A stretch of 30,981 nucleotides of DNA from NCBI RefSeq assembly GCF_003334355.1, contig NZ_QOWP01000038.1. One strand, written 5' to 3'. Below the pieces are notes generated by a model that was given only the letters and a program-made list of their open reading frames with translations, was not told the origin of the DNA and did no database searches. This DNA comes from Escherichia coli (GTDB taxonomy: Bacteria; Pseudomonadota; Gammaproteobacteria; Enterobacterales; Enterobacteriaceae). Position numbers and translations under genes: made by a program. Shown here piece after piece: positions 29,345-29,851 of this stretch; positions within the stretch are counted from its first letter, which is position 1; each line of letters starts with the position of its first letter.

Positions 29345-29851
29345 ATGATGCCAGTTAGCCGTAATCTCTGCATTTTCTTAAACGTTGGTTTGGGAGAAGG
29401 CTCCGCGCTACCGGTGGGCGTACCGGTTCCGTGGCCTCTCCCGAACCCACCACAGGGATGGCTTAAATATAACGGTGCGCCCTTCGATAAAAACATATAT
29501 CCGAAATTAGGTGCAGTTTATCCGGCTGGCGTATTACCCGACTTACGCGGCGAGTTTATTCGCGGCTGGGATGATGGGCGGGGAGTGGATGCAGGGAGAA
29601 TCATATTAGCTCAGCAGGGTGATGCTATTAGAAATATTACAGGTTTCGTGAGTGGTTCTTCTGGCGTTTCGTTTGATAGTTTTTCTGGTGCTTTTTACGA
29701 TTCGGGGGTAAGAAGCGGCAGAAGGCCTGAGAGTACGACTATTGTTGATATGAATGATGATTTTGCTTTTGATGCTTCCCGGGTAGTGCCAACTGCAAAT
29801 GAAAATCGCCCGCGAAATCTTGCATTCAATTACATAGTTCGTGCAGCTTAA
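29345..29851 (+). CDS. Alternative tail-fibre C-terminal cassette (N-terminally truncated, probably silent in this orientation)
   Basis: 168 aa ORF with tail-fibre motifs LPVGVPVPWPLP, YPAGVLPDLRGEFIRGWDDGRGVDAGR and C-terminal VVPTANENRPRNLAFNYIVRAA; residues from 29480 are encoded by the inverted repeat shared with the minus-strand fibre gene. Confidence 0.7.
   Translation: MMPVSRNLCIFLNVGLGEGSALPVGVPVPWPLPNPPQGWLKYNGAPFDKNIYPKLGAVYPAGVLPDLRGEFIRGWDDGRGVDAGRIILAQQGDAIRNITGFVSGSSGVSFDSFSGAFYDSGVRSGRRPESTTIVDMNDDFAFDASRVVPTANENRPRNLAFNYIVRAA
29373..29398. other. Candidate hix/gix-like recombination crossover site
   Basis: TTTTCTTAAACG-TT-GGTTTGGGAGAA: imperfect 12-2-12 dyad; right half GGTTTGGGAGAA matches the gix right half GGTTTTGGATAA in 10 of 12 positions (from memory); sits next to the invertase start. 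Confidence 0.3.
29480..29637 (+). repeat. Inverted repeat, left copy (tail-fibre switch)
   Basis: 29480-29637 is the reverse complement of 30981-30824 with one mismatch seen (29566 C vs partner 30895); compared by eye. Homology breaks at 29638 where the two tips diverge. Confidence 0.85.

Follow-up and report, generated by a model that had tools for sequence, protein, structure and literature searches.

Organization of the locus

The window, by which we mean the whole stretch of 30,981 nucleotides analysed here, corresponds to a P2-like prophage in which minus-strand tail genes (tape measure, tube and sheath) are followed by a gene for a 197-aa recombinase. It is 100% identical to E. coli DXMF6-3R (NZ_CM139232.1; locus L001); adding 22699 to a position in L001 gives the corresponding position in the window.

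The recombinase gene (28724–29317, minus strand) encodes a serine DNA invertase of the Pin/Gin type and is transcribed away from the neighbouring invertible segment. Its reading frame is intact and includes the catalytic serine motif VRVSTNDQ (Ser9). Residues 1–182 align with the sequences of the Mu Gin structures (PDB 3uj3 and 4m6f; E 1e-94) and residues 139–188 with the Hin DNA-binding domain (1hcr), which places an HTH domain at the C-terminus. The protein is 76.8% identical to Mu Gin and 86.5% identical to PinE of e14, and matches phrog_125 ('DNA invertase', E 5e-101). With NCBIfam, all matches of the invertase were below cutoff and the fibre proteins had no match. A QxxRL motif of the DNA-binding domain (Q151/R154/L155 in Hin) and basic residues of helix B (47/48/51 in Hin) make the contacts with Fis and the enhancer, and both are specific to enhancer-dependent invertases (PMC3798978). 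These contact residues are present here, as EQAGRLL, also found in Gin, and, from the Gin alignment, as LKKLLR in helix B (K46, K47 and R50). The C-terminus (28724–28765, …SSATKNKLCHPLANRDK) is 13 residues longer than that of PinE, and a 188-aa version of the invertase occurs in a related prophage (L004 and L005).

The right end of the window is occupied by the C-terminal part of the expressed tail-fibre gene, which includes tip A (30583–30981, minus strand); its start codon is outside the window, at L001 9203. The whole 439-aa fibre protein matches phrog_327 (tail protein, E 3e-201). Between this gene and the invertase gene lie a tail fibre assembly (chaperone) gene annotated by PGAP (29905–30510, minus strand; phrog_105, tail fiber assembly, E 8e-74) and, on the plus strand, a silent alternative cassette for the fibre C-terminus, tip B (29387–29851), which matches phrog_523 (tail collar fibre, E 3e-63) and is in frame with the constant part of the fibre gene after inversion. 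PGAP also reports a 'phage tail protein' CDS at 29348–29851, whose start is located in the spacer outside the invertible segment and which spans the crossover site. This CDS is the silent tip-B cassette and is unlikely to be a gene in its own right. The equivalent CDS is marked as frameshifted in L005.

The invertase-proximal crossover site

Positions 29373–29398 read TTTTCTTAAACG-TT-GGTTTGGGAGAA, with an outer half at 29373–29384, a core TT at 29385–29386 and an inner half at 29387–29398. The first-pass annotation had described this 26-bp sequence as an imperfect 12-2-12 dyad next to the invertase start. The sequence is exactly as quoted there, its halves agreeing at 8 of 12 positions, and the likeness of the right half to the Mu gix half GGTTTTGGATAA, given as 10 of 12 positions, was found to be correct when checked on the Mu record. 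The distances given for the site are also accurate: there are 56 bp from the start of the site to the A of the invertase ATG (29317), with 55 bp in between, and the inverted repeat becomes visible in the window at 29480, 82 bp inside the site, where about 80 bp had been estimated.

To search for such sites we used a hix/gix/cix consensus, TTNTCNNAAACCNNGGTTTNNGANAA, which was validated on the annotated Mu and P1 records. In Mu it identifies the gix sites, whose centres are the annotated boundaries of the G segment; in P1 it identifies both cixL and cixR, and the annotated crossover falls exactly between their two central bases. When both strands of the 30,981-bp window were scanned with up to three mismatches, the only match was the site at 29373–29398, with a single mismatch, and 100 dinucleotide-preserving shuffles of the window gave no match at all.

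We surveyed 71 IMG/VR loci which encode relatives of the invertase and include enough upstream sequence. A site starts at −85 to −76 of the invertase in 67 of them, and 53 of these 67 proximal sites have an upstream partner at 1.0–4.8 kb; only four other consensus matches occur in 574 kb. The core is AA in 66/67 sites. The proximal consensus of the Pin/pix group, TTCTCCCAAACC-AA-CGTTTATGAAAA, located ~80 bp upstream, is matched at 25 of 26 positions by the window site (at −81), the one variant base being an A at position 21 which is shared by 15 of the 67 relatives. In E. coli K-12, scanning the genome with the same consensus retrieves the sites of e14, among them a site at −80 of pinE, TTCTCCCAAACCAACGTTTATGAAAA, which again has core AA and agrees at 25 of 26 positions with the window site when the latter is read on the complementary strand.

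The outer half-site breaks the dyad with a G in place of C at position 12 (strain EC31, described below, has an A there), and this departure is conserved in 65/67 relatives. Among related invertase loci, an imperfect dyad with the departures seen in the window site is the norm. The outer halves, though conserved, are not symmetric: the one on the invertase side carries CGTTT, not GGTTT, in 65/67 loci, while the outer half on the fibre side is often GGTAT, as in P1 cixR (site positions 15 and 17; L008–L086 and the P1 locus L088).

Taken with the junctions of natural inversions presented below, the consensus match, the identity with e14 and the position in relatives make it very probable that 29373–29398 is the invertase-proximal crossover site, of pix/gix type, in a P2-like E. 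coli prophage whose switch is driven by a serine invertase of the Din family (Hin/Gin/Cin/Pin).

The partner site and the extent of the inverted repeat

A partner in inverted orientation, expected to the right of the window if the proposal of a crossover site was sound, is present at L001 8364–8389, equivalent to window positions 31063–31088 and hence 82–107 bp beyond the window end. It reads TTCTCCCAAACC-AA-GGTATGCGAGAA, is inverted relative to the window site and has the inner half (TTCTCCCAAACC) and the core dinucleotide in common with it. It is exactly the one further consensus match in L001, and none of 200 shuffles of L001 contained two consensus matches. The consensus scan revealed no third crossover site in the 14-kb locus. 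A shufflon or other multiple-inversion system, which includes three or more sites, was considered and rejected on this count, since only two sites are present in the locus, one of them in the window.

The inverted repeat is 272 nt long and 94% complementary (L001 6674–6945 and 8118–8389), of which only 165 nt of the right arm are visible. The left arm extends from 29373 to 29644; the right arm starts at 30817, reaches the window end at 30981 and continues for a further 107 nt, finishing with the partner site. The first-pass annotation had predicted a continuation of about 110 bp, with the sites at the outer edges of the repeat as in P1, and on both points the complete sequence agrees: on its outer side, each arm of the repeat stops exactly where its 26-bp site does. 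The invertible segment defined in this way begins at 29386, runs through the window end to the equivalent of 31075, and measures 1,690 bp from core to core, as delimited by the flip found in EC31. The length of the repeat varies widely among relatives, from a match up to offset 27 only in L046/L065 and L076/L084, through 272 nt here, to 636 nt in P1.

Natural inversions and the point of exchange

In E. coli EC31 (L003) the same prophage is present, but its segment is flipped. Its invertase (WP_000905097.1) and chaperone proteins are identical to those encoded here, and the 1,172-nt middle of its segment is the exact reverse complement of that in DXMF6-3R. Fifteen positions distinguish the two repeat arms of DXMF6-3R and serve as markers for the exchange. 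Those at offsets 29–269 have swapped sides between DXMF6-3R and EC31, whereas those within offsets 3–12 (3, 6, 7 and 9) have been kept with the flanks in EC31. When L001 is inverted in silico at the core, it equals EC31 over 3,179 bp with one mismatch, and, with every exchange point tried, this minimum is reached only for exchange at offsets 12–28 (window 29385–29400), which include the core. The sole mismatch, at L001 6685 (window 29384), is a G>A change beside the core in the outer half-site and is also found in L060. Strand exchange therefore took place at the site, within an interval that includes the central dinucleotide and is coarser than a single dinucleotide: for the present prophage it is delimited by one flip pair to 17 positions, the arms being identical at site positions 13–28. 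Inversion junctions had been proposed as a check on the site, and in the natural inverted isolate the exchange maps across the core dinucleotide, where the repeat stops on its outer side. A crossover at the inner repeat ends (29637/30824, where homology stops), which had been named as the outcome contrary to the proposal, gives 21 mismatches against one at the core and was rejected.

Seven more natural flip pairs were found among related prophages, and in these the exchange lies no further out than offset 12. Three related pairs confine it to offsets 12–19, the core being site positions 13–14. The pairs L046/L065 and L076/L084 are exact flips, with 0 mismatches, although their arms match only up to offset 27. 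The L029/L070 pair is uninformative as to where the exchange occurred, since its two outer halves are alike in type.

An alternative is that the flips result from general RecA-dependent homologous recombination between the 272-nt arms and that the dyad is incidental. Arms of this length, 94% identical, are sufficient for such recombination, and a single flip pair is available for the exact prophage. However, the exchange falls in the outermost 12–28 nt, with only 8/12 matching bases beyond, which is a poor substrate; if exchange were equally likely anywhere in the 272 nt, ~6% of events would be expected in the observed interval. The constant distance between site and invertase across the surveyed loci also speaks against this explanation, and the exact flips between arms that match only to offset 27 rule out general homologous recombination for the family. 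For the present prophage we regard it as highly improbable. A role of the 26-bp element mainly as an operator or promoter of the invertase gene, by which the invertase would regulate its own expression by binding 55 bp upstream, has in its favour the location in the 5′ leader region of the gene and an outer half in which an A/T-rich sequence and the C at position 15 are conserved. Yet the junction mapping places the exchange at the site, no promoter-like hexamers overlap it, and an operator role would supplement a crossover function, not replace it; an operator instead of a crossover site can be practically dismissed.

It could also be supposed that the locus retains the architecture of a Din switch which no longer operates, the two orientations being the trace of old events. 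The imperfect outer half-site, the failure of a simple scan to find a clear invertase promoter, and the loss of a chaperone gene from the segment (pro483 and e14 each have two) would all be compatible with such a fossil. Against it, the half-site departures are the family norm, and the invertase gene is intact and retains its catalytic serine and Fis-contact residues. Isolates of opposite orientation have the identical invertase protein, and they are 1 nt apart in 3,179 bp, so that the inversion is recent. Moreover, near-identical switches invert in culture: experiments have recorded the flipping of e14 and of P2-like prophage segments in E. coli, EPEC included (PMC4272514). A defunct switch is very unlikely, if somewhat less so than the two preceding explanations, and we favour an operating site-specific switch with its exchange at 29373–29398.

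A candidate enhancer and a model for inversion

The 5′ coding region of the invertase gene appears to contain a recombinational enhancer with two Fis sites, as judged by homology and synonymous constraint. In the P1 record the Cin enhancer is annotated at nt 19–90 of cin. The corresponding nt 19–90 of the invertase gene (window 29299–29228, minus strand) align with it gaplessly and are identical to it at gene nt 25–35 and 73–85; they are the putative enhancer. Synonymous variation among 61 unique genes, scanned using a two-block window with the blocks 16 codons apart, is lowest at codons 9–13 plus 25–30 out of 158 placements. The centre of the crossover site is ~97 bp from the first conserved block of the putative enhancer, and the native spacing between hixL and the enhancer in Hin is 99 bp (PMC3798978).

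The mechanism can be modelled on the Hin and Gin paradigm. Invertase dimers would bind 29373–29398 and the inverted partner 1,690 bp away in codon 276 of the fibre gene, and the two occupied sites would come together with a Fis-bound enhancer, located within the initial 90 bp of the invertase gene at ~97 bp from the centre of the site. The invertase would then cut both sites at the central TT/AA, rotate one pair of subunits by 180 degrees and religate the DNA. The resulting inversion would exchange fibre tip A for tip B and leave the 87 repeat-encoded residues unchanged. In this scheme the dependence on Fis and the enhancer and the chemistry of cleavage are presumed from homology with these systems.

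In the vicinity of the site, a simple scan revealed no sigma-70-like promoter from which the invertase gene could be transcribed. Between the site and the invertase start, on the minus strand (29337–29356), there is a weak terminator-like hairpin followed by a T-run; such structures are no more frequent here than in shuffled sequences. The motif TGGCAT(C/G)AT within this hairpin also occurs in e14 and Mu.

Fibre tips and the single chaperone gene

The core of the partner site falls in codon 276 of the 439-aa fibre gene. Fibre residues 276–362 (87 residues) are encoded by the repeat, the left arm of which encodes the same residues, and they are identical in both orientations. On inversion the last ~77 residues (tip A) are replaced by the ~68 residues of tip B, the final 24 residues of the two tips being in common. 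The difference between the two fibres is thus confined to their last ~70–77 residues. The fusion predicted by in-silico inversion is exactly the annotated 430-aa fibre of EC31.

The segment has a single chaperone gene (within 29852–30510), which points in the same direction as tip A, so that after inversion tip B is followed by a chaperone gene in antisense. The prophages pro483 and e14 each have two chaperone genes in opposite orientations. Because the lone chaperone gene is antisense to the fibre after inversion, the switch in this prophage lineage might act as an on/off toggle of fibre assembly, and hence of infectivity, in place of a swap between two working host ranges. We consider this reading unlikely. 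Alternatively, a single chaperone may serve both tips from an unrecognised promoter; a simple scan found no promoter-like site upstream of the chaperone gene on its own strand.

Comparison with known inversion systems

The site is an ordinary element of a well-known kind, very probably a Pin/Gin-type crossover site of a tail-fibre host-range switch. Among the closest known systems is the P-segment switch of e14 (PinE with its pix sites), in which the silent fibre cassette, the site and the invertase gene follow one another in the same order and the other site lies inside a tail-fibre gene, stfP, as the partner does here. The two elements differ in that e14 is a defective lambdoid element with two chaperone genes (tfaP and tfaE), whereas the prophage described here is P2-like, has complete tail genes and carries one chaperone gene in its segment. 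In relatives with an e14-type partner (L046/L065 and L076/L084) the arms match to offset 27 only, in contrast to the 272 nt found here.

In the G segment system of Mu (Gin, gixL/gixR and the sis enhancer), gin is outside the invertible DNA and reads away from it, like the invertase gene here. The end of gixR is 54 bp short of the gin start, as against 55 bp here, and the Mu partner is likewise found where the constant part of the fibre gene gives way to the variable part. The core of gix is GA/TC instead of AA/TT, however, and the 3-kb G segment has two complete pairs of fibre tip and chaperone. In P1 the crossovers are annotated 11 bp inside the outer ends of the 636-nt repeat, the same layout as observed here; the cix core is TT/AA, as here, and the fibre-side outer half is GGTAT in both. 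The invertase gene is arranged differently: in P1 the 3′ end of cin, which reads towards the C segment, overlaps cixL, whereas here the site precedes the invertase gene on its 5′ side. The Hin/hix flagellar switch of Salmonella shares the 26-bp sites and the conserved Fis-contact residues. Its Fis-bound enhancer is within the 5′ portion of hin, ~100 bp from the proximal site, a distance comparable to that of the putative enhancer here. In contrast to the present case, hin is inside its invertible segment, which carries a promoter and not alternative coding ends.

These observations fix the true boundaries of the invertible tail-fibre segment for a widespread family of P2-like E. coli prophages. 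They also identify the 'phage tail protein' CDS annotated beside the invertase as a silent cassette, and they account for the differing orientations among assemblies of such prophages. The mechanism, as far as it can be read from homology, would be that of the textbook Hin/Gin/Cin/Pin class, and the findings have little import beyond correct annotation.

Some of the surveyed IMG/VR loci have other arrangements. In L016, L029, L053 and L056 invertase genes and outer halves of the invertase type stand on either side of the segment in a palindromic layout, and L016 and L017 belong to one contig with several invertase copies. The palindromic layouts may be assembly chimeras derived from populations of mixed orientation. 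L037 has three sites upstream of one invertase (at −4173, −2228 and −80), which suggests a multiple-inversion arrangement like that reported for a P2-like EPEC prophage (PMC4272514).
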